Part shown: in pieces, positions 1,142 through 45,100 of the stretch
Layout: each line of letters opens with the position of its first letter
Position numbering within the stretch: position 1 is the first letter of the stretch
Program-made: the position numbers and the translations under genes
Notes under the pieces: generated by a model
Databases searched by the model: none
The model's input: only the letters and a program-made list of their open reading frames with translations
What the model was told of the DNA's origin: nothing
Origin: a virus
Taxonomy: Duplodnaviria > Caudoviricetes
Reading direction: 5' to 3' (one strand)
IMG/VR virus record: IMGVR_UViG_3300028832_000145
Coordinates: 1,305 to 65,304 of that record
Length of the DNA: 64,000 nt

Positions 1142-1690
1142 ATGACCGTCTACGTCCATTGGTATAAGAACGTCCTGAAGGGCGAGCTGCAGGATAGTGA
1201 ATATCTTGGTATGCGTCAAGTCCTGATACCCCTTGACGGCCATCATGTCATTGCTCTGTTCAAACCTGCGCATATCTACTCTACTCTGGCCGAGGCCAAC
1301 AGCGCACTAAGTTGCTCTCCTGTCAAGCCTCAACACACAGCACAGGAACCAGATGCCGGTGAGCTTGTGACCAGCTGTATAGCCGATGTCAAGTGTAAGA
1401 CGTTCTTAACAGAGCACTGGGACCAGGAGCACAACCACTTACAGGTTGATGCCCTCGATACCTTCTATCAGATGTGGCGTAACGAGCACTCCCGCTATGT
1501 CGTTGGAGTTGACCCAGCAGTACCGGGCGGCGACTACTGCAGTGTTCAAAAGTGGCCCGTGTCAAAGGTCGCCACCGTACCCTCGCCATCCAGCGAGGTA
1601 AAGACGCTTACTCGCCGGCAACGGCTCTCAACCAATAACATCATATACCCGGACTCAACAGTACAAACATCAATATTCGACATCATCTAG
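1142..1690 (+). CDS. Hypothetical early protein carrying one hairpin-repeat copy
   Basis: 182-aa ORF in a tightly packed operon. Confidence 0.55.
   Translation: MTVYVHWYKNVLKGELQDSEYLGMRQVLIPLDGHHVIALFKPAHIYSTLAEANSALSCSPVKPQHTAQEPDAGELVTSCIADVKCKTFLTEHWDQEHNHLQVDALDTFYQMWRNEHSRYVVGVDPAVPGGDYCSVQKWPVSKVATVPSPSSEVKTLTRRQRLSTNNIIYPDSTVQTSIFDII
1569..1600 (+). repeat. Dispersed coding hairpin repeat, copy 1
   Basis: GCCACCGTAC-CCTCGCC-ATCC-AGCGAGG-TA; translated on the opposite strand to the other copies (VATVPSPSSEV). Confidence 0.75.
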
Positions 1691-1715
1691 TATTAACCCC
1701 TAAAAACTTACAACT

Positions 1716-2075
1716 ATGTTTGGATTTACAATCATCAGCAATGAAAAGCTTAATCAGCTTCGCAGGAAGTATAGAGAAGGGCTTGAACGCCTCGACACCT
1801 GCCACAGAACGATTGCCGCTTTAAGACGTGACAATACCAATCTGGAAGCACGGCTGAAGTATCAGAAGTGGGCCCATAATATTTTGAAAGAGAAGGTAAC
1901 CTTTGAGGAACATTTCGCCGTCTGCCAAGACACTGGCAGCTGTAACACCTGTTCTCATGAGTATTCCCGCTGCCGTAAGATTACTGTTGGCAAGTCTCAT
2001 GTGTGCATCATTCCCAAGAAAATTACTGTTGGCGAGTCTCATGTGTGCATCATTCCCAAGAAAGTATCACTATGA
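1716..2075 (+). CDS. Hypothetical coiled-coil and Cys-cluster protein
   Basis: 119 aa; starts MFGFTII like the 61271 ORF; CxxxxxCxxCxxxxxxC cluster; C-terminal 14-aa duplication. Confidence 0.55.
   Translation: MFGFTIISNEKLNQLRRKYREGLERLDTCHRTIAALRRDNTNLEARLKYQKWAHNILKEKVTFEEHFAVCQDTGSCNTCSHEYSRCRKITVGKSHVCIIPKKITVGESHVCIIPKKVSL
1980..2063 (+). repeat. 42-bp tandem duplication, 2 copies, in frame
   Basis: ATTACTGTTGGC(A/G)AGTCTCATGTGTGCATCATTCCCAAGAAA twice, 1 mismatch. Confidence 0.95.
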
Positions 2076-2578: not shown

Positions 2579-2590
2579 AGAAATAAGTCT

Positions 2591-3298: not shown

Positions 3299-3300
3299 TT

Positions 3301-3456: not shown

Positions 3457-3460
3457 AGTT

Positions 3461-3882: not shown

Positions 3883-3884
3883 CT

Positions 3885-5099: not shown

Positions 5100-5633
5100 C
5101 TATACTCCAAATACGGTCTTAGCCACTCGCGTATAGTACGCCCGCTGGCTGTAGCCGTTATATCCACCGTTAATCTTCCTCGTCACACCTCTGCAGTCGT
5201 CGGCATCGGCATACTTATTCAGATTGTTCCGCTTCCAGAACCACATCGACGCTTTCTGACACCCCGGCTGCTTTGCCAGCCATTCCGGGTGACTCATAAG
5301 GTCGCCCACACAATAGCCGCTGTCCTGATACGCTTGGTAGTTTGCGCGGCCTGTGCATTGCAGGTAGCCACGTCCCTTGAACTTCATGCCGTCGCCCTTC
5401 TGGGTATTCCCCAAGTCCTTACGACCCTCATACTGCTTACCGCTGGCGATCTCTTCCAGCCATTTCAGCTGTCCCGTCTCATGGGCCACCTGTGCTATGT
5501 AGTGCGCCACCCTCATTGGTGTGTTGATACCGAATGTCTCTGCGTAGTCGTTGAACGACTTCACAAACTCCTTCACGCGCTCACTCATTGCCTGCGGCAT
5601 GATGCGCCTTATCTGTTGCTCTGTTATCTTCAT
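5100..5633 (-). CDS. Endolysin, glycoside hydrolase family 19
   Basis: AHYIAQVAHETG, FKGRGYLQCTGRANY and TRKINGGYNG motifs of phage GH19 lysins. Confidence 0.9.
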   Translation of the reverse strand: MKITEQQIRRIMPQAMSERVKEFVKSFNDYAETFGINTPMRVAHYIAQVAHETGQLKWLEEIASGKQYEGRKDLGNTQKGDGMKFKGRGYLQCTGRANYQAYQDSGYCVGDLMSHPEWLAKQPGCQKASMWFWKRNNLNKYADADDCRGVTRKINGGYNGYSQRAYYTRVAKTVFGV

Positions 5634-6175
5634 TGCTTCTTCCCTTTATTCTTTGCTCCCTTTCCATCGGTCTTTGCCGCCGTGCCCTCGCTATCCAGCG
5701 AGGTCTTCTCCTTCTCTATCTCCTTGCGTATCGTCTCGTAAAGCAGCTCTATCTTGTGCGCATCCTTTATCCCGAGGCTCTTTGCCATTGCCTTGGCTAC
5801 GTTCAGCGGGTCTGCCTTGCCATCCTTGATGCGCTTGCGGTTCTCCCACACGCTCACCGCCTCGATAGCAATCTCGCCCACGGCCACAAGGACACACACG
5901 ATGGGAATCTTGCACCACAGACTAAGGCAGGCATCTATGAACACGGCGAGGAAATACAGCATCAGATACGTCACGTCCTTGTTGGCTGTCTCCCGTAGTC
6001 CGTAACTCGTTGTCTTGAATTGTCCTGCCGCCTTACTCGCCTTGATGCCAAAATATAAGTCCATCAGGCTTGATGCCAACACCATTACCGCCATCATGCC
6101 GATAGCCAGTCCCCAGAGCTTGGCGGCCTCAACGTCGCCTGAGATAATGTGCCCAATAAACAATAATTGTTTCAT
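5630..6175 (-). CDS. Holin
   Basis: Two to three TM helices, DLYFGIKA and E..SVWEN patterns, charged tail, overlaps endolysin start. Confidence 0.7.
   Translation of the reverse strand: MKQLLFIGHIISGDVEAAKLWGLAIGMMAVMVLASSLMDLYFGIKASKAAGQFKTTSYGLRETANKDVTYLMLYFLAVFIDACLSLWCKIPIVCVLVAVGEIAIEAVSVWENRKRIKDGKADPLNVAKAMAKSLGIKDAHKIELLYETIRKEIEKEKTSLDSEGTAAKTDGKGAKNKGKKQ
5671..5707 (+). repeat. Dispersed coding hairpin repeat, copy 2 (holin)
   Basis: TTTGCCGCCGTGC-CCTCGCT-ATCC-AGCGAGG-TC; encodes KTSLDSEGTAAK on the minus strand. Confidence 0.9.
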
Positions 6176-12809: not shown

Positions 12810-13361
12810 TTAACCGCGCTTGATTTTCGGATTGATACCATGCTCTTTGAGCGTCTGACGAGCCTCAGCCTCCGTCTGCACCTGAATCTGCCACGTCTGG
12901 GCAATATACAGGATAGCCTCAGCAGGATTCTGAAACTCCATCGTCTTCATGCCGTCACCCTTCGGTGCCGTCTCTGTCGCAGGCTCTGTTGCAGGTGCTT
13001 CCGCTACAGGCTCGGGCGCTGCTGCAGCAGTCCCCTCGACCTTCGGCGAGGTCTGTGCCGCTGTTTTCCCTGCGGGTGCTTCCATCGGCTTAATGCGGCT
13101 GGCACGGTCTTTTGCCGGTACTGCGGCCTTGCCAGTAGGCAAGGATGCACCAATAACACGAAGCAGTACAACCTCCTTGTTCTTGAACAGCTCACTGGCT
13201 TCAAGAGCTTTCATCTTGAACGGGTTGTCAGTGCGGAGCTTGGGTTTAGTGCCATTATACACGTTGCCGCCTACGAAAGCCACACGAACCTTTACACCTT
13301 TGTAGTGCAAGGTCACCTCATAGCTGTTCTGCAACTTCTGTAATTGATACTCTTTAATCAT
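12810..13361 (-). CDS. Hypothetical late protein with Ala/Pro/Thr-rich linker
   Basis: 183-aa ORF directly downstream of capsid. Confidence 0.55.
   Translation of the reverse strand: MIKEYQLQKLQNSYEVTLHYKGVKVRVAFVGGNVYNGTKPKLRTDNPFKMKALEASELFKNKEVVLLRVIGASLPTGKAAVPAKDRASRIKPMEAPAGKTAAQTSPKVEGTAAAAPEPVAEAPATEPATETAPKGDGMKTMEFQNPAEAILYIAQTWQIQVQTEAEARQTLKEHGINPKIKRG
13022..13056 (+). repeat. Dispersed coding hairpin repeat, copy 3 (degenerate)
   Basis: GCAGCAGTCC-CCTCG-ACCTTCGG-CGAGG-TC; encodes TSPKVEGTAAAA. Confidence 0.6.
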
Positions 13362-15480: not shown

Positions 15481-16347
15481 TTAGTCCATAAGTTCCTTAC
15501 CCCAGTCGGCAAAGCCGCCTTCCTTCTTCGGCTTCTTCTCGCCGCGTCCGGCTCCACCTGTGCCCTTTGAGGGAGGCAGACCGGTTCCAAAGTCCTTCAG
15601 GCCGTTTTCCACCTTCTCGTTAAGAGCTGTTGCGCGTGCCTTTTCGGTGGCAGCGGCAATGTCGTTGTCGTAGTTCTCGGCTTTCAAGATGGCCTCCCAA
15701 ACTTCCTTGCTGACGATACCGCGAGAGGCTGCGCCAAAGATGCCGTCGCTGATAGGCTCACCGTCCTCTCCAGTCTCGCCAAACATCTTCTTGACAAGGG
15801 CAACAACATCTTCGTTGCTCAGTCCTTTCTCGTCCTGTACCTGTTTCAGCGCATTGAAGGACTCCTGCATGTTAGCACCTATCTCTTTCTTGGTGTCCTC
15901 GTCGGCCTTAGTGGCGGCGGCTGTCGCCTCCTGATTCTTGATAAGGGCCTCGCCCATCTTCTTACCAAACTCCGGATCGTTGGCCAGCTCACGAATATCC
16001 ATGTCGGGGCCGATGTTTTCTGCCAGATAGGTAAACGGGTTCTCGCCTTCCTTTGCTGCCAGCACCAGTCCGGCAAGCAACGGCGCTTTGTCGAAGGCCT
16101 CACCCAGCAGCCGATTGTCTTCACGATACTTCTCCAGCTCGTCAAGATTCGCGTTTGCCTGTGTGTAAAAGGCGTCCTCGTCATCGAGGTTCATGTCCGG
16201 GTGCGCCTTGCTGTAGCGGTCGCGGTATCGGTCACGCGCCGTCGGCTCGGTTGACGCCGTTCCTGCAGCTTCTCCTGCGGGTACAGCCGGTGTAGTGGCC
16301 TCGCCGTTCGGCGGGGTCTCTGCGTTAACTTTCTTCTTCTCTGCCAT
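15481..16347 (-). CDS. Capsid scaffolding protein
   Basis: Acidic helical 288 aa directly upstream of capsid; start moved to MAEKKK at 16347. Confidence 0.6.
   Translation of the reverse strand: MAEKKKVNAETPPNGEATTPAVPAGEAAGTASTEPTARDRYRDRYSKAHPDMNLDDEDAFYTQANANLDELEKYREDNRLLGEAFDKAPLLAGLVLAAKEGENPFTYLAENIGPDMDIRELANDPEFGKKMGEALIKNQEATAAATKADEDTKKEIGANMQESFNALKQVQDEKGLSNEDVVALVKKMFGETGEDGEPISDGIFGAASRGIVSKEVWEAILKAENYDNDIAAATEKARATALNEKVENGLKDFGTGLPPSKGTGGAGRGEKKPKKEGGFADWGKELMD
16291..16320 (+). repeat. Dispersed coding hairpin repeat, copy 4 (scaffold)
   Basis: TGTAGTGG-CCTCGCC-GTTC-GGCGGGG-TCTC; compensatory C-G pair in the stem. Confidence 0.55.
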
Positions 16348-16394
16348 AACTGTTATGTTTATGTTTTGTTTGCCGTCGTTGGCTGGATTCGCCA

Positions 16395-16440
16395 CAAAAT
16401 TAAAGCTGCAAGGGGCTTCATTTTTCACAATATTATCAAA
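16395..16440 (-). promoter_or_regulatory. Late promoter for scaffold-capsid-fibre-lysis operon
   Basis: On minus strand TTTGATAATATTGTGAAAA, 19 nt, then TAATTTTG (Bacteroidota -7 box TAnnTTTG). Confidence 0.65.
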
Positions 16441-16471
16441 CAGCCGAGGAAACAACCGCCAAAATGCCTCT

Positions 16472-16517
16472 TTTGATAATTTTGTGAAAAACATCGCCCT
16501 TTTCAGACCTATTTTTG
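16472..16517 (+). promoter_or_regulatory. Late promoter for portal-adaptor operon
   Basis: TTTGATAATTTTGTGAAAA, 19 nt, then TATTTTTG. Confidence 0.65.
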
Positions 16518-16539
16518 CAACCAAAAGAATCATCACAGC

Positions 16540-22471: not shown

Positions 22472-22489
22472 CGGCTAACAAGTAAAGAC

Positions 22490-24137: not shown

Positions 24138-26444
24138 CTAAAGGTCTGCTTCTGTGCCGGCTCTTGCTGCCGACAATCCTCCAGTTGATTCTTTTATCCA
24201 CTGAGGTAGTGGCATCTTCAGGCTTACATACAAGCCGATACCCGTTGACATCACAATATCGTCATGGTTGTTCTTGCCTTCTGAGTTACCCATTGTGCCG
24301 TCTTCCTTACGCTCGTATATCATCAGCTCGTCAAACGCCTGTTTGTCAGGTTCCACATAAAGGGCATCCTCCACATACGCCTTGTAGCAGTCTATCACCA
24401 GCTCCTTTGTCACGGTGTTGGTGTGGAAACCGTAGATGTTCGTTACCTTCTGCGTCACCTTGTCAACCTCGGTGGCACGGATATACAGGTTAGGATAGTA
24501 GTCTGCTATCTCGTCGATGATGGTTCCGAAGTGGTCACCCTCTTCATCCAGTCGCTGCTTGCGGGTGTCGGCAGTGTTCTTCTCTATTACCAGCTTCGCG
24601 TCGCCGTATAAGTGCGCAAGCTGCGCTGCTTTCCATGCCAGCAGGTCAAAGCGCATGTGACCGCGCCAACGTGCCACCACCTGCGGCTTTCCATACATAC
24701 CGGGCATCATGCCGAAGCGGTCTATCACCGTCATAACGGTAAAGTCCGATGTGCGGCTGCTACCGCCTATGTCGACGCTCACCACATAGCGGTCCGACAC
24801 TTTCAGGCCGTCCGGCATACGCCATATTCTCAGTACCTGTCCGTCATCCACCTTGTCAACGAGGCGGGCACGCTTAATGGCATTGATGCCTTTGTCGTAG
24901 TCTGACACGATGTTACCCACAAATATAGGCTGCTTCTCCATCGACATGCGCATAGCATCAACACAGTATTTGTCAAAGATAAGGTTACCAGCGGCCATGA
25001 AGCACTCCACATCGTCGGCGGGGAACTCCGTAGCCATGTAGCTGTGTGTGCGGTACTCGTTACGTTTGTTCCTGTACCAGTTGATAGCTTCCATCGAGGC
25101 ACCTTTCTGCCACTGTTGCCAGAAGTATTTGCCACTCTCGCGGTAGCCCTTCGGATTGTTCGGGTTATCTTTGTTCTCTATCAGCCACTCGGCAAACTCC
25201 CTCTCCGCTGCACGATACGCCTTGATGGTCTCCTTTGCTTTCAGCATCTGTGCCTCACCCTTTGCCGCCGTGCCCTCGCTATTGAGCGAGGTCTTCTTAG
25301 TAGCCCTCAGCGCCGCTGCAAACGCTTTCCAGCCACCTTCCATCAGCTCGTCGCGGTATAACTCAATTTCATAGTACGCAACAAACAGCGGCTCCCATGC
25401 GCTCGGTATGTCGGGATTCTTCGCCTCTTGATACATATTGTAGAAGAAGTCGCCGACAGTCCTGCCCGACGATTCCATCACTATCATGGTGTCCGGGCGC
25501 TTACCTACCGTACCATTGATAGATGACAGCACACCCTCCGGCTTCTTCTGCTCCGTCTCTTTCCAGTACGCCACCTCTGACAGATGTGCCATCTTAAGGT
25601 TAGAGCTTCGGCTGGCATCGTAGTTCTCGTATGACACTACCGAGGTCACGTTACCTCTCACCTCTTCGCCTGCAGTGGTCTTCACCACAAAGTCGGTGGT
25701 GCTGCCCTTGAAAGGCGCACTCTTCAGACGGCGACCTTTCAGGCCGACACTCCAGCCGGGCTGATGATCCAGCGCAAGGTCGTACATCGCGCGGATACGG
25801 ATTGATGCTGCCGTCTGGTGGGCCATAATGGCCATGTTCCACCGCTGATGCTTGAAGTCCTGCATCCACTTACCATACAGCTGCGTCTCGGTGGAACCGC
25901 CGAACTGACGCGCCTTTGGCAAAACAATACGGATGGGCCTGCGTTCAAGCCTCATCTTCTCCTGTAGGGCAAGTATCTTGCGCTGGCCGTAGTTAAGGAC
26001 GAAAGGTATCAAGGTGCCCTCTTCCTTATCCACAATCTTGTATATCATGGCAAAGGCAAACGCAGGGTCTTCCTCTGCCCTCATCTTGAACAAGGCACAG
26101 ACAACGTCCTCAAAGGTCTCGTCGTTGAACTCCCAGCCCAGTTCGTCCTCAATGTATTTCCTGATACTGCCGCGTTTCAGTACCTTTTTCAGAAAGATGT
26201 TATGCTCTACGATGCGCTCCGGCATATACTGAACCCTGATGGGGCAGTCCGGAATCTTCACCTTCTTTCGGGGACCAGGGGCGCCGCGTCCGGTAATAGG
26301 GTTGAAGCCGTCAAACATTTCATGGTTGCGACGCTCGTTCTCTTTGACAAGCGCCTCTACCGTCGGCTCACCGTTCCACCATCCCGTCGCTGCTGCCTCG
26401 GTTTTCCCTGATGGCATATCAACCTTTCCACCGTCCATAGGCAA
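24138..26444 (-). CDS. terL: Terminase large subunit
   Basis: PKARQFGGST Walker A, AHLSEVAYW Walker B, MIVMESSG, nuclease motifs VSVDIGG..SDFTV and NHDDIVM. Confidence 0.9.
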   Translation of the reverse strand: MPMDGGKVDMPSGKTEAAATGWWNGEPTVEALVKENERRNHEMFDGFNPITGRGAPGPRKKVKIPDCPIRVQYMPERIVEHNIFLKKVLKRGSIRKYIEDELGWEFNDETFEDVVCALFKMRAEEDPAFAFAMIYKIVDKEEGTLIPFVLNYGQRKILALQEKMRLERRPIRIVLPKARQFGGSTETQLYGKWMQDFKHQRWNMAIMAHQTAASIRIRAMYDLALDHQPGWSVGLKGRRLKSAPFKGSTTDFVVKTTAGEEVRGNVTSVVSYENYDASRSSNLKMAHLSEVAYWKETEQKKPEGVLSSINGTVGKRPDTMIVMESSGRTVGDFFYNMYQEAKNPDIPSAWEPLFVAYYEIELYRDELMEGGWKAFAAALRATKKTSLNSEGTAAKGEAQMLKAKETIKAYRAAEREFAEWLIENKDNPNNPKGYRESGKYFWQQWQKGASMEAINWYRNKRNEYRTHSYMATEFPADDVECFMAAGNLIFDKYCVDAMRMSMEKQPIFVGNIVSDYDKGINAIKRARLVDKVDDGQVLRIWRMPDGLKVSDRYVVSVDIGGSSRTSDFTVMTVIDRFGMMPGMYGKPQVVARWRGHMRFDLLAWKAAQLAHLYGDAKLVIEKNTADTRKQRLDEEGDHFGTIIDEIADYYPNLYIRATEVDKVTQKVTNIYGFHTNTVTKELVIDCYKAYVEDALYVEPDKQAFDELMIYERKEDGTMGNSEGKNNHDDIVMSTGIGLYVSLKMPLPQWIKESTGGLSAARAGTEADL
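25261..25297 (+). repeat. Dispersed coding hairpin repeat, copy 5 (TerL)
   Basis: TTTGCCGCCGTGC-CCTCGCT-ATTG-AGCGAGG-TCTTC; encodes KTSLNSEGTAAK. Confidence 0.9.
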
Positions 26445-26925
26445 GCCCCATCAATACACAATAGGTGTGAATACTCCAGTTGATGTGTGGTATCAGCACG
26501 CCCACCAGCGCAAACGGCAGCATCCTCTTGCAGAACGTCCAGTATGTTGTTGTGCCACAACGACACAACGCCCCCCACTTTACACCGATGATAGCAAACA
26601 ACACGCCGCTGAATCCCATTGTCGCCGCTGCTGCCGCAGTCCCCTCGCTATTGAGCGAGGTAATCATCTCCCACGCCCCCGGCAGCACCGGTAGCCACGA
26701 CGCAAGAAACGCGATAGCTACCGATACCGCCAAGTACAGGCGCTTTGACATTAGCCAAAGCACAAACAGATTCCCGCACAAATGCCAGAAGTTTGCATGA
26801 CACACTATCCACAGCACATGCTCCATGATAGTTCCGTCTTCTCTATAACCCACCTTGACACCCAGCGCCCACACCAGCACCAGCACGATGGTGACAGCCG
26901 TCTTCTCTATCAGCAACCACTTCAT
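26419..26925 (-). CDS. Rhomboid-family intramembrane serine protease
   Basis: HANFWHLCGN (HxxxxHxxxN), GFSG catalytic Ser motif, distal His in WSIHTYC, several TM helices; start at 26925 overlaps the upstream stop. Confidence 0.8.
   Translation of the reverse strand: MKWLLIEKTAVTIVLVLVWALGVKVGYREDGTIMEHVLWIVCHANFWHLCGNLFVLWLMSKRLYLAVSVAIAFLASWLPVLPGAWEMITSLNSEGTAAAAATMGFSGVLFAIIGVKWGALCRCGTTTYWTFCKRMLPFALVGVLIPHINWSIHTYCVLMGLAYGRWKG
26630..26663 (+). repeat. Dispersed coding hairpin repeat, copy 6 (rhomboid)
   Basis: GCTGCCGCAGTCC-CCTCGCT-ATTG-AGCGAGG-TA; encodes TSLNSEGTAAAA just before GFSG. Confidence 0.9.
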
Positions 26926-27332
26926 ACACTCTTCCTTTTGCTTCTCTTCTGCCATATCTGACACATGCGCGTATGACCGATGTAGAACCTCGGTGCCGGT
27001 TGCAGGACGGCAAACTGCAGTACAAAGCTCAGGCTCTTACCGCAATAGGCGCTGTTCTGCCAAAGGCGTAGCACTGTCTCAAACAGGTCTTCATACATTT
27101 TCCTTTTCAAAGGCGAAAGCTTATCAATGGCGCTGCGGTCGCCTCTTGTCAGTGGCGATATATACTGATGCGCTCGTCTGGCATCTATATAGAACCTCGG
27201 TGCCGGATGCTCCACGACACGACGGAAAGCCTCGTCGTTACATCTGCACTCATAGCTGGCACTCACCTCCCGGAACACCTTCATGAGGTCTTCCTCCATC
27301 TCCTTTCTACAGTTAGTATGCTCCTTCATCAT
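26922..27332 (-). CDS. Hypothetical protein with internally repeated PAPRFYI motif, possible regulator
   Basis: HPAPRFYID and QPAPRFYIG; basic C-terminus; start moved to 27332. Confidence 0.6.
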   Translation of the reverse strand: MMKEHTNCRKEMEEDLMKVFREVSASYECRCNDEAFRRVVEHPAPRFYIDARRAHQYISPLTRGDRSAIDKLSPLKRKMYEDLFETVLRLWQNSAYCGKSLSFVLQFAVLQPAPRFYIGHTRMCQIWQKRSKRKSV

Positions 27333-33100: not shown

Positions 33101-36100
33101 CTTTCAGCGTTGCCTCCGTAGCGGCATTGATGGCTTTCCAAAGCTTTGCCACGGTTGCCTCGGCTTCTCCCGACGGTGTTGTCTCTGCAGAGAACACAGC
33201 ATCCTCGGCATAGCCTCTTGCCACCTCATACGCCTCTTTCATCTGCCGGTCGTACTCCTTCCAGAGCATGGCGCGTGTCTTCGGGTCAATGGCACGCTGC
33301 GCCTGACGCTTCGTGTCCTGGGCATCGTCGTACCACTCCTTAGCAAACGTCTCGGTCAGACCGGAATAGTCATGGGCGTAGGTGTCATAGCCGCCCACAT
33401 GCGACTTGATAACGCTTTCTATTCTGCGCAGATACTCGGTATAGCCGATGTCGCCGTTCTCGTAGTCCTCCTTGGCACGCTGGTAGGCCAGCGTCTCACG
33501 AATCTGCTTGATGCGGTCATCAACGCCCGTCTGCTCTTTCTTTGCGAGAAGATTAAGCTGCTCCTTGTAGCTCTTTTCGGCAATCTGCTTTTCCTTGTAT
33601 TTCTTTTCCAGCTTCTTGCGCTCGTCGGCTACCTCCTTCACAAGCTTCTCCTTCACGGCATCACGCATAGCGTAATAGACGTTACGCTCCAGACCATGTT
33701 TGGCAATAAGATACTCCTGCCCTGCCTCAAAGGTCATGTCTTTGGCCTTGATAAAGTCGTTAAAGGCTTTCAGCATGGGGCGGTAGTATCTCCAGTCGTA
33801 TTGCTCGGTGCGGTTCTTTGAACGCCCGTGCATGCGGTTCTCAAACCTATATGCGTCCTCGGCTCCCTTGGCAACGTTACCGGTCTCCTTGGCTATGGCA
33901 TCCTGTATCGCTTTCAGGCTCACCATTGAGTCCTGCCACGCCTCTTGCCACTTCAAGCTGTCTTTGGCTACTGCTGCCTCGTAAGTGTCGCGGGCCACAT
34001 CATCCAGCCATGCGTCCGGGTCGCTATACAACAGTCCCATCTCGTCGGCTTCCTTCATGGCCTTTATCTCGGCGTTAAGCTCGTCGACGATGTCCTGCGT
34101 CAAGATGTCGCCGTCCTGAATCTTCTGAGGTTCACGGCCTGCCTTGCGCACAAGCTCGTCTACCTCTTCACGGCTCAGGATGCGATTCACGCGCATAGCT
34201 CCCGTGATAACCCACTCGTCGGTCTTCGGGTCGGGATTGGTGCGGTACTTGTAGCTGCCGTCCTCGGGCACATGCTTCAGTCCGGCTAAGGAGTGCTGAT
34301 ATTTACCGTTGGCGTTGACACCTTCCTGACGGGCCTCGTCCTGATAGTCCACGTCATCGGCATATTCTACCTCTGCCCACACAAAGTTGTTCGGGAACAA
34401 ACTACGCTCTCCCTCGCGCCCACTGGTTTGCCCAGTGTTGTCTTTTCTGTTGAACTGTAGAGCATAGGGGATAGTACCAAGGTGCCAGCCCGGACGGTAG
34501 GCCAATTGACCGCTGCCGCCCTGTGTGCCCTTGCCACCAGCTTTCACCTGCGGCCTGCCTGTCTTACTGGTTCCAGCTACAGGTGCGGCATCGGCATCGA
34601 GCCATACGCCAATAGGCGTGCCTTCACCACCGGGGTTAGCTACCATTGGCGGGTACAGCTGGCCGTCCTTCAATACGAATACCTTATAACCCTTGCCCGT
34701 CTTCTTTGGCGGTTCCTTGGTGCGGAGGCTATAACGTATGTCGTTATCCTCGGTCATGAACGTACCTACATTATCGGTGGCGCTCTTGATCTGATTCGGC
34801 TTGAAGGCTATCCAACTGTCTGCTGGATGGTCCGGGTCTTCATACTGATTAAGATAGACAATACCATCATAGCCTTTGCCCTTTGAGCGTTCTACCGACT
34901 GCTGCCAGTACTCGCTCATGGTCATGTCCTTCTCGTCAAGTTCATTTTCGTCCGCATCACTTCTGCGCTGCGGGTTACGGATATTCAGGAACACCTCGTA
35001 TATCTTCTTTCCACTTTCAGATTTGTCAAAACGTACACGGTGTATTGCCTGTCCTTTAGTACCGAAATGCTGGTCTTCATAGAACGTCCAGAAAGCTTCT
35101 CCCCTGTTTACGTTGTCAAGGTCTGTACCATGATACATCACCTTTGGTTCACCGTTTTCATCTACAACTTTTGAATAATCTAAAAGTTTTTCGCCTTTTT
35201 TGTGTGATTTATCAATATCTTTTAGTAACTTTGCAGCAGTAATAGAGCTGTTGGAATTGCGGGGAGTCCCTACGGGGGCTGCACTTAGACCGTCCAGCAA
35301 CTCTATTTTTGTTGCTTCATAGCTATAAGCCTTGGTCTTTGTAGCCTGTGTACGGTCTTCCTTAAGAGTAATCTTTACTCGGTAAATCTGTCCGTCAATA
35401 TCAACAGCACCAAACACACGATGTATGGTAACACCTTCGTTGATACCATTCTCTACAGAACGAACACCGTTCACCTTCTTATAGTCAGGATGGCTTTCAC
35501 CAACCATACCGTCATGTATCACGGATGGCAGTACTTTCAGTACAGACATGTGAACATCTTTGCTGTCGCTTTTAGTGACGGCATCCTCAGACATGAACTT
35601 CTCAACAGCTTTGCCGCTAATTTGTATCTTGCCTTTACCACCTGTCTCTTCGTCGCTGTAAGTGCGGACGATGTTCTGCTTTGCCCAGTGACGGGCATCT
35701 GCAAAGTTAGTAAAGCCGTGTTCCTTCTCTGCCGGAACAATACGCACCTCCTGCGCTGCTTTCTCCCAGTCGCCAAACCAGTCCTTAAACGCCTGTGTTC
35801 TCACCTGCGCCCATTGCAGTTCGTTGAGGTTACTGGGTTTGCCATTGGGGGCCAGCATATAAGTACCGTCTGCCTTGGCCTTGTCAACGATGGCGTTTAT
35901 CTCGTCGCTGGCATAGTCTGTACTGTTGAGCAGCACATCATTGGCAACATTGTCCTGCTGTTCATCGACTATGGCAATACGATAGCCATTCCTTACAAGT
36001 CTTGGCAGAATAATGTCAAGCTTGTCTGCAGGGATATTATACTCCGTATCGCTGTTATTACCCCATGCACCACGACCGAAAGCACTACCGACGGGACTGA

Positions 36101-39100
36101 CATCTTCGCCGATGGCCTTATAGTTGCCGTCCTGCATCTTAAACAGAATCAGGGCATCAGGATATTTGGATTTTATCTCGCGGAACTTTCTGTAGAGAGG
36201 ATCAAGCCCGACAACGAGAGCCTGCGGCTCTGCTGCCAGTCCTGTAGGCATCAGACGTACATCGTCGGCGTAAGCACCCACTTTCAGGCGGCTCTGCATC
36301 TGCACGTCCTTGGCCTTGTCGAAGATGCTGCGGCGTCCGGGGTGCAACAGGTTATCGTAGCTGCGCCACAGGATATAGCGAAGCTCGTCATCCGTAATAG
36401 GCTCCGACATGCGAAGGCCTGCCCGCGTAAGCATCTCTATGAAGAAGTCCTTAATCTTCTGCCACCAGCCCTGTGAACTTGCGTGGTCGAAGTCGGTACG
36501 CTCTGCAAGCCTTGCAAGGTATTCCTCGGTAGCTTCGTGACGGCCCCATCCGTTACGCTTCATGGAGGCTTTGATGCGGTCTCTAATCTCCGGCGACACG
36601 TTTTCATACACATTATCAAGGAATGTGTCAAAGTTCGCGCCGAACATCTTACGCAGGCCGGCATGTGCCACACCCTCATGCAGCAGCGTATTGATAAGGT
36701 CGCTCTGGTTACGGTGGTTCGGCAGTACCAGCGTTATCTTGCCGGTCTGCCTGTTGAAGATGCCCTTGGCGCGACGCTGTTTGCCTACCAGTCCGTCGAG
36801 GTCTGTCTTTACCTCCACGTCAAGGTGCATAGCTTCAGCGAGACTTGTCACGGCGGCAATGGCGTTGCGCGTCTTTCTCTCGATGTAGCTCTTCTTTCCA
36901 GCCTCAGCGCGTTTCGTCATTGTTCCAGACGTTTCTACGGCGGGCACCTGCATCACGCTCTCCCAGCTCTCAAACCTTACGTTACCATCCACGATGCTGA
37001 CGTAGTACTCCGGGTATTGTCGGCGCAAGCCGTCCAGAAGCTGTTGCTCAGTGGCATATTCATCCGGCATCAGGTCAACGCTATATGTCCTGTCGCGCTT
37101 CAGCACATGACCGTCCCATACCAAGTTAGTATGAATCGGGAACAGCTCACCCTCGGCAAATGTTTCGGCCTGTCTATACAGCTCGTCATCCTCGCTGTCA
37201 TCGGCCTTGCGGAGGTCAAAGCCACCATCCTCACCGGCTTCCTTAGCCTGCTCGGCATACTTGGCTTCCTTCTCTTCCATTTCCTTTTTCATCAAGGCAG
37301 TGTATTCCTCAACGCGCTTTTCGGCCTCTTCCAGCTCTTTGCCGAACTGGAACGGCTGACCGACACGGCCCTGCATCTGTTCACTCTCGGCTTTCAGACG
37401 CTCAACCTCTTCCTTCATCCGGGCGATGGCATCCTCACTGCGCTGTCCGGTGATACGACTGGTAAGAATCTCTTCGATACCATCCTTAAAGCTGCGCACG
37501 TCGGCAGAACGCTGCATCTTCAAGTCCTCGCTCTTGTAGCTCGTTTCTCTGTGAATGACAGTGTGCATGGCACCATTCTCCCACTTTGATTCACGCACAA
37601 CACCGATGCTGAAAGTGATATTGGCATTGTCTACCTTGACATTGAACTTAAGATACTCATCATTATAGATGGCGTTCTCTCTGTTGCGCTTGACAATAGC
37701 GTTTACGGGGTCGTTGACTTTCTCCTTGATAACCTCTGCAAGCTTCTTGTCGGCATCTGAAGCTGTCAAGTCAACGGTAGCGCCCTCGATGGTAATGCGT
37801 TTTGCCTTGCCATCAGGGAACAAGCTTCTAATATGGTTCAGCAGCTTCTCTTCATTGGGTATGTAGAGGTTCTGATACTCGTTGACGGCTTTCTCGTTAC
37901 GCTTCAGCTTGTCAACAATATACACCTGGTCAGCCTCCCATTGCGATTTCTTACCTTGGTACTTTCTCAGTTCGCGCTCTGCCTGATTCTTCTTCAAGGC
38001 ATACTGGGAGCCGGAGAGAACAGCCACGGGATTGTCAAACAGACCTTCCTCTTCCTCTTCGACGGTACGGTCAACCTGATTGTTCATCAGCGAACCCTTG
38101 CCGTCCATGATGGAGTCAATAAAGCCTGACTTGGTCTTTAGGCGCTGATAGGCGGTCACGTCCAGAGAATCCTCAACACCGAAGCGCACTACCTTGATAC
38201 TCTTGCCCCATTCCTTATGGAGATTACCCTGTCGCTTGATACGTCCGTTACGCTGGGTGTAGTCCATAGGACGGTCGGGAGCATCCATGTGTATCAGCAA
38301 GTGCAAACGCTCCTGAATATTCACGCCTGTTCCCAACGTCTGAGTACTACCCATGATGACACGGATACTGCCAGCGTTGACGGCATCAAATATCTTCTGC
38401 TTGGCTGTGATACTCATGCCACTCTTGATGACGGCAATCTCTGACTCGGGCACGCCCTGCTTCACAAGCTTGGCTTTCATCTCGTCGAAGATGTTGAACT
38501 CTACCGACTTGTCAGCACCCAGTCTGTTCTGATTGTCACAGAACACGGCAACAGTTCCCTTGTAGCTCTTTGTCTTGTCAAGGTCGGCCAGTATCTCCTT
38601 CACGGCTGAATTGGTCTTACTCATCGGCTCGTCGGGGGCCTCAGCGTCTACCAGACGCGGGTCAATGGCGGCACGCTTGGCAATACCATACATTGTCAAA
38701 GGTATGCTGCTGTTCTCCTTCTTCTGCTGACCACTCATCTGCTCAAAGCGTTCCAGCTCCTTGCGGACTGCGGCCATGATGCGCACAAGGCTCGGCGACT
38801 GCGGCAGGAACACGTCTTGATCCTTGCCACCTTCAAGCTCGGGTATCTTCTCCTGCACCTTGCCTACCTCCTTTGTCAGAACGGTGTCGGCAACTTGGCT
38901 CCATATACGGATAAGCTCGGGCTTGTTGACGTAGGCCGCAAAGCGCGTGTTCTCCTTGAACTTGCCGCTGGTAGAGAACTCCAGCATCTGTGAGATACTG
39001 CCAAAGTTATGCACGAAGTCATCAAAGTAGTAGATGTCATTATCGCGCATCACGTCGGCTGGCATGAGGTACTTCATGAACGTCCATATCTCGGCAGCGG

Positions 39101-42100
39101 TGTTGCTGATGGGCGTACCGGTGGCAAAGACAACATTCTTCCAGCCTGCTTTCTCAAAGACGCAGCGGGTCTTGTTATACAGACCGGCACATTTCTTGGA
39201 GTAGCTGGGGTCTATACCTTTGATGCCACGACCAATAGAAGTCTGGAAACCGAGGTGCTTGTATTCATGAGCCTCATCAACGAGCAAGGCATCTACACCG
39301 AGGTCATCAAAGAACTGGACATCGTCGACGGCTCGGTCTAGCTGCTCCTTTGCCCTGGTCTCAGCCTTATCCAAAGAGGCGGCTTCTCTCTTGGCGTCCT
39401 TCTTCTTACGCTTGGGGCCTGCGCCGTCGTTGGCGGGGTCGCTGTTAAGGAACTTGTCGCCATACTCCTGCTCTAGTCCGGCAAGCTCACGCTTCAGCTT
39501 CTCAATACTGCGCTTGTCGAGGTTGGAACCCTCTGCGGCCTCGATGATGTGTTTCTTCTCGTCTATCTTCTCCTGTATGAACTGCAGTTCACGCTCAGGA
39601 GAGTCGGGAATACGCTCAAACGTTGACTGCGGTACGATGATGATGTCCCAGTCGTTGAACTTAATCTTAGCATAGAAAGCACGACGGCCTTCTGCGCTAC
39701 GGTCCTTCTCCGACAAAGAGAGTATCTTGGCGTTGGGATAAAGCAGCTTTGCGTCTGCGGTCATCTGTGCCACGGTGGCGTTCTGAACCACTATCATGGG
39801 CTTCTGTGCCGTACCCAGACGGCGCATTTCCATAGCGGTGGAAATCAGGGTGAAGCTCTTACCGGTGCCAACCTCATGGGCAAGCATCGTCGGAGATGTC
39901 ACACCTCGCATGACACCACGTTTCTGATGGCCGTACAGGCTGATGTTCATGTTTGCACCCTCAAAGACTTCCGGCAGGAACTCGTCACCAATGGTCATCG
40001 GAACCAGCGCATTGAACTTGTCGTTATAAATCTTCTCGATACGTCCGGCAAGCTCTTCGTCGTTCTGCATCTTCTTGCGCATCCACTCCTTAAACTCGCT
40101 CTTGATTTCGTCAATACGGACGTTACAAGCCTGCGTTGCTTTCTGGTCGACGATAGTACGGGTACTGCCCTCAAAGGTCTTCTCCACCTTTGCCACCTTA
40201 TAGGGTCTGTTGTTCAGCGCGGAGTCAATAAGCTGGTGGGCATAGATGGTTGTGTTGAACTCTTCGCTATACACGCCTCCAGCCCTGTTCTTCTCTTCAC
40301 GGAACCATGTACCTACTTCGAGATTCCACGAACCGGCAAGATGTGTAAGCTGCACATTTCTCAGGTCAGTAGAATCCTTGACAAACTCCACATACAGCTC
40401 CTTGGGTATCCATGACGAACCGAGAGAAAAGTCTATCAGGTGGGCGGGAATATCCATCGGCACCACTTTCTTCAGCTCTTCGATGTTGGCATTGTACTTG
40501 CCTCCCTCGTTATAGCTCTCTGCCTGTGCCAGCTTCTCACGCACGTTACCGCTGAGATACTGGTGACGTACCTCTAACTGACCTGTCTTCGGATTCTCAA
40601 AGCCCAGTCTGCTGACGAGGATTCCCTTGCGCACATCGTCTGCAGTCCACTCACCGGCCTGTCCTCCTTCCTTTGGCACATTGCCATCGTTGAGTCTGTC
40701 GGTTATCCATCCGAGGTCAATGCCGTTACTGCGGAAGATGCTGGCAATAAGTGCATCCTTGACGCTCTTCGGCTTAGGCTCGGTCTTGAAGCCGAGGACA
40801 CGCTGCTGCATGACGGGAGCCTTGCTTGTATGCACCGTGACCTTACCCTTGATGTCCTTTGACTCCTTGTAGTTCTCTAGTGCCTGGAATGACGGGAAAT
40901 CAATGTCGTTACGCAGGAAAGAGATAGCGGTGTTCTTATGCAGCGTACCATAACGCTTCGTGAACTTGTCATAGGCGGCGTTAAGGGCTTTTAGCTTCGG
41001 CTCCAGCTTGGCATCGTCCGGATCGTTCAACTGTTGCTGCAGCACATCGTCAACGGCCTGCTGGACGGCCTGATAGTCCTTGAAGCACTCGGCCTTGCTG
41101 TAGCCTTTCACCTTTTGGTCGTTGAGGCCCAAGGGTACGGCTACGCCTCGCTGGCTGACACACAGTCGGCCGTTCTCGTCAACCAACATACGGCCTTCTT
41201 TCTCGGCGGTAAGCTGATTCTCCACCACCGGCTTGGCTTCTTTGGTGGCCTGTTTCTGCTGCTGCGATTGCATTGCACCCACCTGCTCCATCGTCTTGAC
41301 AAACTCCTGCAGCATCTTCTCCTGCTCCTTTCCGCTGACAGGATAGAGTGCATAGCTGCCCGGACGGAAGGTGTCACCCTTCTCATATCCAAAGGCCATT
41401 TCACCGGCCATCATTTCGGGATGCTCCTTGAAGTAGTCGTTGATAACCATCGTCGTTTGCTTGTCATCGCCGTACTTGTCGGTGTATGTACCAACACGCA
41501 ACGGGGAGGCCTTGCTCACGTCAATAGCACCTGCCGACTTTCCGGCGGTTCTCTTACGCACTACGATGATGTCCGACGTCACCTTAGTACCGCCAAACGT
41601 CTCATTATTCATACGGAAAGCACCCACCACGTCGGACTGTCCTTCGCTGGTTATCCATGAACGGAGGTCATTGCTCTTATCCATCGTGCCGGAGCTGGTG
41701 ATGAAGATACCGATACCGCCGGGCTTCAGCTTGCGGATATTCTTCGCAATACAGAAGTCGTGGATATTCACAAACCTGCGGCTAAGGTCTTTGTCCACCT
41801 TGTCAAAGACATGCAGACCTGTGACAAACGGCACGTTGGTAATAGCAAGGTCAACGCTGCCGTTGGGTATCTGTGTGTCCTCAAAGCCCTGAATATGCAC
41901 CTTGGCGTCGGGATAAAGGAGCTTCAGGATATTACCCGAGATACTGTCTATCTCGACGGCCTCAATATCACTGCGACGACTCATTTCACGCGGCATCTGA
42001 CCGATGATGTTACCGATACCGGCACTACCCTCCAGCGTATTGCCACCCTTGAAGCCCATTGCCTTGGCAATGTCCCACAAGGTGTCGATGACCATTGCAG

Positions 42101-45100
42101 GGGTGTAGTAAGCGCTGTTGGCACTCATCACGGCATCGTTATACTCTTCATCGGTGAGCACGTCACGCAGTAACTTATTCTCTGCGCTGCTCTCATCGTT
42201 GAAGTAAGTACCGAGACCGCCCCAGCCGCTATACTGGCGAAGCACCTCCATCTGGTCCTTGGTGGGAGCCTCAACACCATCGTCCATCAGGGCACGCATC
42301 ATCTTCACCGCCTCAATGTTGGCGTTGAAACGTGCTTTGGGTGAGGTGGGCGCATAGTCCTTGCCCCTCTCACCGACATTGTTACGCTTGTTTTTGTGAA
42401 GTTCCTGCTTAGGCTTGGCAGGCTGATTCTCTACGGCACGTCCAGATCCAGAACGCTCAGACCTATTCTGTTCAGCGCCCAGTTCCGTTCCAGCTCCGTC
42501 AGTTCCTCCACTGACTTGCCTTTCTCCTTCGCCACTTGGCGAAGACTCTCCTGGTATCTCTCGTTCTGTTCCATTGTTTAAGAAATCTTCAAATGAAATG
42601 TCGTTGCTGTTCCAAAGTGTCTTTGGCTGGGTGCCAAAAGGCACTACGTTGTCCTTCCATTCGGCATGTGTAAAGATGGGCGAACCATCATTTACCACCA
42701 GTTGCCTTTCGGGAGCTGAAAGTCCTCCATCTCCCACCATGTTTTGAACGTCTGTGTCAGACGCTCTTTCTCCTCTTGCGACATCTGTTCGTAGTTGCCG
42801 CAGTCCCTCTCTTGTTCTTGCTGTTTCGCCAGATAGGCGTTCAGACCTTCTGAGAAGTTTTTGAACTTCGTTCTTAATTCGTTCATAATCACCAATATTT
42901 GCGTCCACAAAGTTACTGAAAATAATCGAAACTTTGTCCCCTATGGTTGTTAAATAATCTAAAGAAAGGTATCTTCCTTTCAATGCAAAGCGAGAAGCGG
43001 CACGCATAACGGAGTCTTCCTTGGAAACATCGTTAAACAGAAGCTCCACATCATAGCCTTTCTTGCGCATTTCAATGGCTCTTTCAACGACGCTCAAACC
43101 ACCAATACGCGGAACAACTACATTCTCACCCTTTTCAATAGCCATGTCAAGGGCCAGCTCGGCAACTATGGTACTGGCTTCATGCACATAGTTGGCTCCG
43201 TAGCCATTGTCATAGCCCTCCAGCCACGGCTTAACCGTATCGGAGTCAATAATGCGGGCTGCATACTGGTGCGAAGTGGGGTCTGCAAATACGCTGCTCT
43301 TACCGGCTGCTGGTCTGCCTACAACGATAAAGGCTTTCTTCTCTGCTCTTACCTCGCCGGTATAGCCAGTAAGTTTCTTTCCGTCATATACAGCGCTGCC
43401 GTGCTCGGCATCAAACAGACGCTCGGCATATCCTTTTATCTGCTCATCCGACAACTCCAGCTTGCCCTTTCTCATTTTACCCTCTGCTTCAATGATGGCT
43501 GGCTCTTTCTTCAGCTCATCGGCAGGTATAAGCACCTCATCCCACACAGCTGCCTGAATAAAGGCAAGTTCCTTGTGAACGTAGTTCTGGAAACGCGGGT
43601 CGTAAGCAAAGTAGGTTCTTGCTTCCTGCGTCATGTACGTTCTGTAGTCGCTCTTGTCAATATTTGGCTTATAAGCATGCGTGGCAATCTCCATCTCCAA
43701 GTCTTTCTCGGAAACGGTAAACGTAGTAGCCGGCTTATTGTTAGTAAAAGCATCGGCATCTTTATAGAAAGCAAATTCATATATACGTTCGCCATCCTTG
43801 ATAATGCTGCCTACAATCTTATTATAAGCCCCTTCCCTCAACAGGACTGTACCATCCTTGAACATCGGTTCATTGGTCTTCTCGGCAGTGCCCTTGCTTT
43901 CGAGCGAGGTTTTCTCTGATACCGTCCCCTCGGTATTTCCTGCGGGTTCACCAAACAAATCAAGCTGTGTAACACCATTGCCAATCTTTGCCGTCACCTC
44001 CTTCTCTATCTTTTTGACGGCCTGCTTGGCTTTCTGCTGACGGACCACCTGCGCTGCCTTTTCCGTAACCGTAGGAGCTGTTTTCTTGTCGAAGTTGTCA
44101 ATATCGAAAGCATTGACATACTCCTGGCTATCCATCAGCTCACGGTATTCTGCGGCTTCCGGCATATTCCTGACGGCCTCATAGAAAGCTTTCAGGTACG
44201 GACGGATGGCGTCGCCTATCTCGTCAACCATTTCACGGGCGTAGTCAGCAAACTTGGTGACACCACGCTCTATCTTACCGACGGCGTACATGGCACCCAG
44301 CAGCATACGCTCAACGTCAATACCGGCGTTAAGAGTGTTGAACTTCTCAATAAGTTTCTTCCTCAGCTCTTCCATCTGGTCGTCGCTGACGATACGCTTA
44401 TGCTCCTTCGGCTTCTTCTCCTGTTTCTTCGTTTCCGTTTCAGCGGCTTCAGCTGCTGGCTTGCTCTCACCTACCTGTACGTCGCCCTGCGTCTTGACGC
44501 TCTTGTATGCAGCAAACGGTTTGGTCTTACGGTGTGAAGACTCTACCCATTTCTTGAACTCCTCACGGCTAACGGGTGTAATAGCACCCAGTCCTTGCCA
44601 GCCCTCTTCGTAGTTCGAGAGATAGGCTGCCTCAGCGCTGGCCATATCAGGAAAACCATACATGACCTTGTGCTCGTCAAACTCGCCGGTCTTCGGGTTC
44701 ACCTGATCTACGACGAACACGTCGCCGCCAATGGGAAGGTCACTCAGGAATACGTCGATGTGGTCGCCGTCAACGCCTTCCGTGCCACGGATATAACCAT
44801 AGGTATTATGCATTTCCTGCTCCCACTGCTGGCCGTTCTGGTCAGTACCACGACGGACGCTACCCTTGGGATTCTCGATGGAAATGTCGTAACCGTCCAC
44901 CTTGATATGTCCCATCTGATAGTTTCCGGCCTCCTTCTGTCCCTCGCTGGGGTTAGTATCAACCTTTGCCTCTTCCTCGGCAATCTCTTCTGCCGAAGAT
45001 GTTGCACCCAACTGCGCTTTCTGCTGGTCGATATATTCAATCAGCTCGCGCAAGCCACCAAACTGCTGACCGTCATATTCGTAGCTGCTTCCGTTATAGT

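Follow-up and report, generated by a model that had tools for sequence, protein, structure and literature searches.

Hairpins that recur inside unrelated genes of a Caudoviricetes phage are probably a REP-type mobile element of the Bacteroidales lineage that the phage infects, moved by a Y1/HUH transposase of that host. The carrier is a temperate, Bacteroidales-infecting phage, of which we analysed a stretch of 64,000 nucleotides (the window). REP-type repeats of a Bacteroidales host would thus be able to colonise a temperate phage and to be carried, translated, inside its core genes (terminase, holin, a scaffold-position gene and a rhomboid-like gene).

Hairpin copies in the phage genome

The pattern CCTCGCT-N4-AGCGAGG, with at most two mismatches allowed, matched the window five times (1581, 5686, 25274, 26643 and 43892; Table 1), against 0.26 matches expected from dinucleotide shuffles (at least five in 0/100) and a mean of 0.86 and a maximum of 4 from synonymous-codon shuffles that kept all proteins (at least five in 0/300). 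The codon-shuffle null, named beforehand as a possible refutation, is thereby itself refuted, and the family is real; a repeat search recovered it independently as the main dispersed repeat of the window (D2/D3). These five copies are robust. Seven had been described in the sequence-only reading, and an independent model finds five of them but puts hairpins 13034 (E 1.1) and 16299 (E 0.41) at noise level in the window. These two are older, weaker members of the family, taken as real because 13022-13057 resembles the 26626 copy (30/36 identity) and because both have been kept at orthologous positions of sister phages.

Table 1. Hairpin copies and one empty site in the window, with scores from a covariance model built on bacterial copies only (TerL, terminase large subunit)
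Feature	Position	Strand	Hairpin	Location	Translation	Model score
Element copy	1569..1604	+	1581-1598, CCTCGCC ATCC AGCGAGG	+ strand gene 1142-1690	ATVPSPSSEVK	24.9 bits, E 2.5e-4
Element copy	5674..5709	+	5686-5703	C-terminal tail of holin-like gene 5630-6175 (-)	EKTSLDSEGTAAK	45.7 bits, E 2e-9
Degenerate copy	13022..13057	+	13034-13051, CCTCGAC CTTC GGCGAGG	Ala/Pro-rich linker of gene 12810-13361 (-)		
Old copy	16287..16322	+	16299-16316, CCTCGCC GTTC GGCGGGG	Close to N-terminus of product of scaffold-position gene 15481-16536 (-)		
48-nt TerL insertion	25269..25316	+	25274-25291 (model match 25262-25297)	TerL gene 24138-26444 (-)		43.5 bits, E 7e-9
Element copy	26631..26666	+	26643-26660	Rhomboid-like gene 26419-26964 (-), in loop immediately before GFSG motif	ITSLNSEGTAAAA	32.8 bits, E 2.8e-6
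Element copy	43880..43915	+	43892-43909, CCTTGCT TTCG AGCGAGG, one G-T pair	Gene 30162-49967 (-), inter-domain linker of the 6601-aa polyvalent protein, between InPase and Zeta-toxin domains		17.6 bits, E 0.015
Empty site	22472..22479	+		Spacer past stop of gene 21872-22471; 30-nt copy there in sister phage L120		

The element has a G+C stem of 7-8 bp and a 4-nt loop, and on the + strand every copy shows the 5' foot GCNGCNGTNC and a 3' T. The DNA folds of the hairpins lie between -7 and -11 kcal/mol (z about -3 for the four best copies), and a wider scan for the foot followed by any hairpin gave only the known copies above the shuffled level. The host genes agree with those first named: a holin-like gene, a rhomboid-like gene, the terminase large subunit and the gene of the polyvalent 6601-aa protein, which is DarB-like, with methylase, helicase, ART, Zeta toxin and InPase domains. 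The stretch around the copy in this last gene is not conserved in the related phages G003 and G004, and gene 1142-1690 has no counterpart in the close relatives compared.

The bacterial family and its candidate transposases

A Bacteroidales MAG of 2.4 Mb (G006) contains at least 31 model matches to the same element, mostly intergenic (150 of 1874 candidates scored), and 20 exact matches to GTNCCCTCGCN6GCGAGG, for which a backward control gave none. Its consensus, GCCGCCGTGC-CCTCGCC-N4-GGCGAGG, agrees with phage copies 5686 and 25274 at 16 of 17 positions of foot and arm. A scan with a covariance model had been proposed as a check on the family; trained solely on 21 copies from this MAG, such a model recovers five phage copies (E 2e-9 to 0.015), all on the + strand. 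The stem covaries, with CG, UA, AU and UG pairs at the two inner positions (a score reached by 0/500 shuffles) and 97.5% of cells paired in the bacterial alignment; in the foot, G9, T10 and C12 are invariant across the 21 bacterial copies, the tetranucleotide being GTGC in the bacterium and GTNC in the phage.

The bacterial copies lie between chromosomal genes, e.g., in the trpF/trpA spacer and upstream of a TonB-type receptor, and form clusters (three in tandem on contig C134, an inverted pair on C122); one lies in frame within a P-type ATPase gene. Both orientations are found on single contigs, so strict strand polarity is no property of the family. The foot-plus-stem pattern has no match in 60 relatives of this MAG, and of 400 other Bacteroidales genomes three matched the strict hairpin, once each; the distribution is species-specific within the genomes searched. 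A high-copy home across Bacteroidales is ruled out by the near absence of the strict hairpin from those 400 genomes. The initial proposal of a selfish micro-element of the REP or RPE kind gains support from this family, which has many copies, mostly between genes, in a genome with RAYT-like genes of its own. A species-specific REP family found in a phage as well as in a bacterium provides a new type of clue for assigning hosts to uncultured phages. Apart from the repeat, no attP, integrase-region, TerL or prophage match links the phage to this MAG. Copies are about eight times denser in the phage (about 1 per 10 kb) than in the MAG (about 1 per 77 kb) and constitute a separate subfamily with a T-A closing pair and a 3' T; they may therefore have been amplified inside the phage or derive from some unsampled host.

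Two putative RAYT-like HUH genes were identified in the MAG. The product of one (P0001) has the HUH motif DHIHM and the Y motif YVRDNP, and it matches NF047646 with E 8.5e-9 and 35 bits, below the cut-off of 80; against Pfam Y1_Tnp the RAYT-like genes score weakly (21-23 bits). P0001 is itself interrupted in frame by hairpins, as already published for Bacteroidetes TnpA_REP; the hairpins within and upstream of it are others than the repeat studied here. The model finds no copy of the repeat within about 1.5 kb of either gene, and RAYT-like homologues are common in relatives of the MAG that are devoid of the repeat; for these two reasons no enzyme is assigned to it. No Y1/HUH gene emerged in the phage, either from about 50 ORFs scanned against Pfam or from a six-frame NF047646 search, as expected from the earlier statement that no mobiliser is visible there.

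Turnover among related phages and strand polarity

Comparison with related phages, suggested at the outset as a search for clean presence/absence indels, revealed such an indel in TerL and a patchy distribution in the holin and rhomboid-like genes. L116, the TerL of which is 95% identical at the DNA level, has a clean 48-nt gap at the TerL insertion site, and the insertion is absent from more than 100 TerL homologues of 58-78% identity; it is present in L120. In an alignment of the window with L116 and L120, the latter carries a 30-nt copy in a spacer (CGTAGTGC-CCTCGCC-ACCC-AGCGAGG-TCTT, between window bases 22475 and 22476), the site being empty in the window and in L116. This insertion has the same orientation as the window copies and exact ends, with no border repeat, no target duplication and no Ala-rich context. 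The holin copy is present in L117 (42.4 bits) but absent from the holins of L118, L119 and most cluster members, and the 13034 copy is identical in L117 (13.7 bits, E 0.031) but absent from L119. The 16299 copy is conserved in L117/L120 and in L119, which has a better foot at this site (GTAC-CCTCGCC; 16 bits, E 0.012).

The rhomboid-like copy is an insertion of about 12 aa (about 36 nt) relative to G001-G004, and the gene is shorter in 6 of the 9 members of the 90% cluster; L116 shows a remnant there (ACTCGC..AGG). At the same rhomboid site L115 (TerL 79%, rhomboid 54% aa identity) has a different, perfect 8-bp hairpin, which hints at selection for structure. Sister phages that are 93-95% identical are without most copies (L116/L119 retain one plus a remnant), and four fully read relatives (TerL about 72% identical) have neither copies nor hairpin families of their own. 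The bacterial-only model returned nothing below E 0.4 from 390 kb of related phages, and other IMG/VR phages gave only single matches to the bacterial variants, probably by chance. The insertions into phage genes are recent and did not break them, and their turnover is rapid enough for phages of 93-95% identity to differ in them.

All seven copies lie on the + strand of the window, as first described, and the check for orientation bias found eight of eight independent sites in one genomic orientation (p about 0.008), two of them in regions transcribed the other way. Target availability was rejected as the cause, because on the + strand of minus-gene regions GCCGC occurs 40 times and GCGGC 86 times. 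The cumulative GC skew falls monotonically over the window. As a tentative suggestion, which we hold to be rather doubtful, the uniform orientation might record exposed single-stranded DNA, with a host Y1/HUH enzyme inserting in one strand, or else a strand-specific signal co-opted by the phage. The displaced strand of rolling-circle replication is an example of such exposure, considered here beside the roughly eightfold chromosomal density; co-option was offered as a reason why a hairpin persists at the rhomboid site of a diverged relative. The one-strand bias is also a natural record for testing the strand preference of RAYT-type enzymes on phage DNA.

The same polarity lies behind the other explanation in the sequence-only reading, namely a functional, strand-polar phage signal, i.e., an ssDNA or RNA hairpin for replication priming, packaging, ejection, regulation or binding of a phage protein. 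The polarity is real, and target availability does not explain it, but the signal is not needed, and we consider it unlikely. It would fit the eightfold density, the hairpin retained at the L115 rhomboid site despite its changed sequence, the conservation of the 16299 copy in three phages and the G-T pairs, four of five of which are on the foot strand. Against it stand the absence of most copies from close sister phages and of all from the four fully read relatives, positions that are not conserved, and the mostly intergenic location of the same element in a bacterial chromosome. A search of known RNA families (Rfam) returned nothing at the gathering score, nor with E relaxed to 1. As the stem is not followed by a T-run on either strand, the hairpin is not an intrinsic terminator.

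Somewhat less likely again is spread independent of a transposase, by microhomology-mediated template switching, gene conversion or recombination between Ala-rich linkers. The TerL insertion has the direct repeat GCCGC (5 nt) at both borders, the 9 nt that precede the TerL element on its left (CTTTGCCGC) are native to TerL and recur unchanged as the left flank of the holin copy, and the hairpin element has no assigned transposase, all of which would be compatible with such a process. However, the 30-nt spacer insertion of L120 arose without border repeat or Ala-rich context, the bacterial family is dispersed over many unrelated intergenic sites, and Y1/HUH enzymes recognise just such a layout, a conserved 5' foot adjoining a hairpin (PMC6006769). 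A candidate similarity between the 3' tail of the TerL insert and a holin-tail repeat of L119 was too weak for use.

In-frame carriage and comparison with known elements

For a REP-type element of the host lineage, the most likely course is as follows. The element has a core of about 30 nt, in which a guide-like 5' foot, (C)GTGC, is followed by a G+C stem of 7-8 bp with a free 4-nt loop and by TCTT, and a RAYT-like Y1/HUH transposase of the host, acting on single-stranded DNA, would copy it into the prophage or the replicating phage. Since the length of the unit (30, 36 or 48 nt) is always divisible by three, the frame is never shifted, and copies would persist only at places that tolerate an additional 10-16 hydrophilic residues, i.e., in loops, linkers and tails. 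One orientation would follow if a single strand of the phage DNA is exposed as ssDNA; in rolling-circle replication this could be the displaced strand, and in a prophage that is replicated passively, the template of the lagging strand.

The six copies in minus-strand genes are read in one common phase, encoding (E/K)KTSL(D/N/E)S(E/K)GTA, and this could suggest that the conserved unit is a peptide, TSLxSEGTAA (a protease site, targeting tag or modification site), its DNA identity reflecting recent duplication; the loop codon, which specifies only D, N or E, would also agree. We regard this as very improbable, since non-coding and opposite-strand copies already contradict it: the 1581 copy is read from the opposite strand as VPSPSSEV (confirming the earlier observation), the ATPase copy of the MAG is likewise read from the other strand, and most bacterial copies and the L120 spacer copy are non-coding. 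Furthermore, synonymous shuffles do not reproduce the hairpins, and the holin, terminase and rhomboid-like proteins have no common compartment. One of the two alternative phases contains a stop, so the choice of phase is largely forced, and survival in stop-free phases alone would result in the common peptide. Together with the covarying stem, these copies uphold the initial view that selection acts on the nucleic acid rather than on the peptide. N4-type virion RNA polymerase promoters, solitary CRISPR repeats or intrinsic terminators, to which the 7-bp stem with its short loop, a size near that of a CRISPR repeat and the giant virion-type protein might point, can be dismissed, as they are contradicted already by a DarB-like giant protein with no RNA polymerase match or domain, by the lack of arrays in three collections (viral, genome and metagenome) and by the missing T-run and Rfam match.

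Among mobile elements that use hairpins, IS200/IS605 members (IS608, ISDra2) combine a hairpin with a 5' guide tetranucleotide and insert strand-specifically into ssDNA at the lagging-strand template, so that their copies would all point one way in a genome replicated unidirectionally. Their ends bear distinct hairpins on both sides, and insertion takes place 3' of a fixed target without duplication. The phage element, in contrast, has a single hairpin, and one of its insertions has a 5-nt border repeat; this 48-nt TerL insertion with its border repeat is unlike the expected IS200-type signature.

The closest likeness is to REP/BIME/REPIN elements with their RAYT (TnpA_REP) Y1-HUH transposases (Nunvar 2010, PMC2817692; Di Nocera 2013, PMC3733652; Quentin 2018, PMC6006769). 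REPs are defined as imperfect palindromes of 20-65 nt with a G+C-rich stem-loop, and the phage element likewise forms an imperfect, G+C-rich palindrome, 30-36 nt long, in which a conserved tetranucleotide immediately precedes the stem on its 5' side, the loop is free and stem changes are compensatory; it belongs to a species-specific, multi-copy, mostly intergenic family with clusters and inverted pairs. It differs in its foot (GTGC, the published ones being GT[AG]G or CGTC, with GTAG or CGTC as canonical forms), in copy number (at least 31 in a single carrier genome, where published families often exceed 100) and in that no RAYT gene is flanked by the repeat, whereas the RAYT of a REPtron is flanked by cognate REPs. 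The copies studied here are also intragenic, in a phage genome and in one orientation.

Intragenic REPs and Rickettsia palindromic elements (RPE) are already in print (PMC3733652), and they resemble the phage copies as in-frame palindromes in functional genes that add 10-30 residues at loops or linkers and appear as clean indels against homologues. The TerL (48 nt), rhomboid (about 36 nt) and bacterial ATPase indels are RPE-like in behaviour only: RPEs (RPE-1 to -8, with a CGTC tag) occur in Rickettsia hosts, RPE-1 measures 100-150 bp, and there is no sequence relation, so the phage element is not a member. In-frame length variants that arise from such repeats can mislead gene and domain annotation. 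Compared with both, the carrier here is a temperate phage, and the genes that accommodate the element include the terminase, the holin and the scaffold-position gene.

The hairpin family in the phage and in a Bacteroidales genome

The hairpin CCTCGCT-N4-AGCGAGG occurs five times in the window with at most one mismatch, compared with 0.26 matches in dinucleotide shuffles, even with two mismatches allowed. Synonymous-codon shuffles, in which all proteins including the TSLxSEG peptides are kept, gave a mean of 0.86 and never reached five in 300 trials; the similar numbers under a shuffled-codon null that would have counted against the sequence-only reading were thus not seen. In an unsupervised repeat search of the window this family was the main dispersed repeat. 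In all copies the plus strand has the foot GCNGCNGTNC on the 5' side of the stem and a T on its 3' side, and the four best fold as single-stranded DNA at -7 to -11 kcal/mol (z near -3). The six copies that lie in minus-strand genes are all read in one phase, encoding (E/K)KTSL(D/N/E)S(E/K)GTA; of their two alternative phases, one has a TAG and the other yields a very basic peptide. The frame of the hairpin at 1581 confirmed that this copy is translated from the opposite strand, as had been proposed (there placed at 1569).

We trained a covariance model on 21 bacterial copies only and scanned the window with filters off; five phage copies were recovered (see table), and 390 kb of related phages gave nothing better than E 0.4. 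Stem covariation was found at two inner pairs, the observed score being reached in 0/500 shuffles. Five of the seven copies originally counted thus stand by an independent model; it does not lift those at 13022 and 16299 above noise, yet sister phages keep both at the orthologous positions, with a better foot for 16299 in L119 (E 0.012).

An 18-base pattern scanned in three public collections gave numbers at chance level. Three records shared the foot too, namely a Bacteroidales MAG (G006, locus L051) and the metagenome contigs L063 and L080, in which copies sit among chromosomal genes (in the trpF/trpA spacer, downstream of trpA, upstream of dnaN, and between glycoside hydrolase genes). A relaxed pattern gave 20 exact matches in G006, none in the backward control and none in 60 relatives of G006, and the covariance model raised the number in G006 to at least 31; the consensus in G006 reads GGCCGCCGTGC-CCTCGCC-RTYN-GGCGAGG-G. 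Across 400 other Bacteroidales genomes the strict hairpin hardly occurs, and four fully read relatives (TerL ~72% identical) and further partial ones showed neither a copy nor a hairpin family of their own. The G006 copies are mostly intergenic, with some clustered in tandem or paired in inverted orientation; a P-type ATPase contains one in frame, between its ERKYMATRI and KGAPE motifs, which is read AVVPSSSDEGF, in the same strand and phase as the phage copy at 1581. This ATPase (L108:1-2982, contig C2) has about 70 extra residues between the two motifs, made up of PLHQTSQAPL repeats and the one in-frame REP copy. G006 carries the family but is not proven to be the host. A T-A closing pair and a 3' T set the phage copies apart as a subfamily; because this subfamily is rare in every collection searched and copy density in the phage is about 8 times that in G006, the copies have probably multiplied in the phage lineage or come from an unsampled host.

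Presence and absence among sister phages

Protein searches provided sister phages with 93-95% identical DNA (L116 and L119 on one ENA contig, L117 and L120 on one Logan contig, and L118). Insertion into TerL, rhomboid and holin genes, which the sequence-only reading had considered, is clean in TerL: in L116 (95% identical) a segment of exactly 48 nt is missing (window 25269-25316; GCCGC at each border), and its absence from more than 100 TerL homologues of 58-78% identity as well makes the empty state the ancestral one. The TerL copy is present in L120, where a partial foot duplication (EGTAAKGEGTAVKGEAQ) adjoins it (L120:10001-12319), showing local duplication around the element. In the 90% rhomboid cluster three of nine members have the element and six a shorter form, which looks like a remnant that has lost the centre of the hairpin; at this site L115, a more diverged relative (TerL 79%, rhomboid 54% amino acid identity), carries a perfect 8-bp hairpin of another sequence. 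The holin and 13034 copies are patchy, occurring in the window and L117 and not in L118 or L119. A new site was found in an L120 spacer, where a 30-nt copy, CGTAGTGC-CCTCGCC-ACCC-AGCGAGG-TCTT, is inserted without a border repeat; the window (22475/22476) and L116 have no insertion there.

Most related holins (L118:49-588, L119:10001-10591) have another hairpin where the window has the REP copy, CGGCGGCG-TTCT-CGCCG(T/A)CG with foot CCGTGCAC, read as GNVKSDGENAAEVHG; in the L119 holin a 42-nt unit occurs twice in tandem. Holins of the shortest form (GNVDKPKKGKK) resemble the empty site, and units of this kind seem to have a hot spot in the holin tail.

Strand polarity and a putative mobilising enzyme

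All eight independent insertions (seven window sites and the L120 site) have the foot on one strand (two-sided p = 0.008; p = 0.03 for the six robust sites alone), which upholds the single genomic orientation noted earlier. The L120 copy agrees in orientation with the window copies, its flanking genes being opposite, and as two of the eight sites lie in oppositely transcribed regions, the polarity follows the genome and not the genes. Target availability is ruled out as the cause, because GCCGC is the rarer motif on the plus strand of the minus-gene regions (40 vs 86 for its complement). In four of five cases the G-T pairs lie on the foot strand. Whatever the gene direction, cumulative GC skew declines monotonically over 1-64000, a pattern compatible with different treatment of one strand along the full length, such as unidirectional replication would give; the bias would be accounted for by a Y1/HUH enzyme that acts on one exposed strand. 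Single G006 contigs carry copies in both orientations.

No Y1/HUH or other transposase was found in the phage, as the sequence-only reading had also reported. G006 has two RAYT-like genes. The product of one, P0001 (490 aa), has the motifs MPDHIHMVLF and YVRDNPFRY; its match to NF047646 (REP-associated tyrosine transposase) has E 8.5e-9, under the curated cut-off. Between its HuH and Y motifs lies in-frame low-complexity sequence encoded by other hairpins, a feature published for TnpA_REP subclass 2.4 of Bacteroidetes and cyanobacteria (PMC6006769). The in-frame interruption of the RAYT-like gene at L095:1183-2655 (contig C59), between the HUH and Tyr motifs, consists of AEKAT repeats and hairpins with a GACGAC loop (CACGCCC GACGAC GGGCGTG and variants), a second hairpin family in G006. 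The present repeat flanks neither RAYT-like gene, and homologues are common in repeat-free relatives of G006; we therefore infer a RAYT-like Y1/HUH mobiliser and assign no particular enzyme.

REPs with a 5' tetranucleotide foot, RAYT/TnpA_REP enzymes, REPs inside genes and Rickettsia RPEs are in print (PMC2817692, PMC3733652, PMC6006769), and our literature search found no paper on REP-type repeats translated within phage genes. Distinctive here are the cross-validated link of phage copies to a bacterial family, the polymorphic insertions, mapped to the base, in core phage genes and the strict one-strand bias.

The phage genome

The IMG/VR record (65,304 bp, rated complete by CheckV) is of a temperate, podovirus-like phage; the window, which covers its bases 1305-65304, is ~64% minus-strand coding, 28% plus-strand coding and 8% non-coding. 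An assembly artefact is ruled out for the phage form that combines the 6601-aa gene with the element-bearing rhomboid protein, since three further samples record it.

Covariance-model matches and phage genes in the window
Feature	Position	Strand	Detail
Model match	1569-1604	+	E 2.5e-4
Model match	5674-5709	+	E 2e-9
Model match	25262-25297	+	E 7e-9
Model match	26631-26666	+	E 3e-6
Model match	43888-43915	+	E 0.015
P22-type portal	16540-18570
Tyrosine integrase	51941-53356	-
S24/HTH repressor	56795-57478	-
Other proteins			SU10-type capsid protein and adaptor, T7 gp14-like internal protein, holin-like protein
Rhomboid-like protein
TerL			768 aa
Polyvalent DarB-like protein			6601 aa; InPase, Zeta-toxin, methylase/helicase, MutS-I, ART, LPD

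The record end (window 63950-64000; genome bases 1-1304) falls inside the motif GFPCQPFS of a cytosine-5 DNA methyltransferase, so that the linear record is cut inside a gene, which probably reflects circular permutation of the genome or an arbitrary cutting point. Gene 60496-61212, which has a weak TrAA12-like Pfam match only, contains a 12-nt unit repeated at least 15 times in tandem (60503-60778). Two separate 42-nt tandem duplications are present, at 1977-2060 (95% identical) and at 51823-51906 (86% identical); the latter is directly downstream of the integrase gene end and could represent arm-type integrase sites at attP. A 33-nt sequence occurs at 1704-1736 and, 59.5 kb apart, at 61259-61291 (88% identical); both copies span a gene start (AACTATGTTTGGATTTAC), so that the two genes have either an N-terminus or a regulatory site in common.
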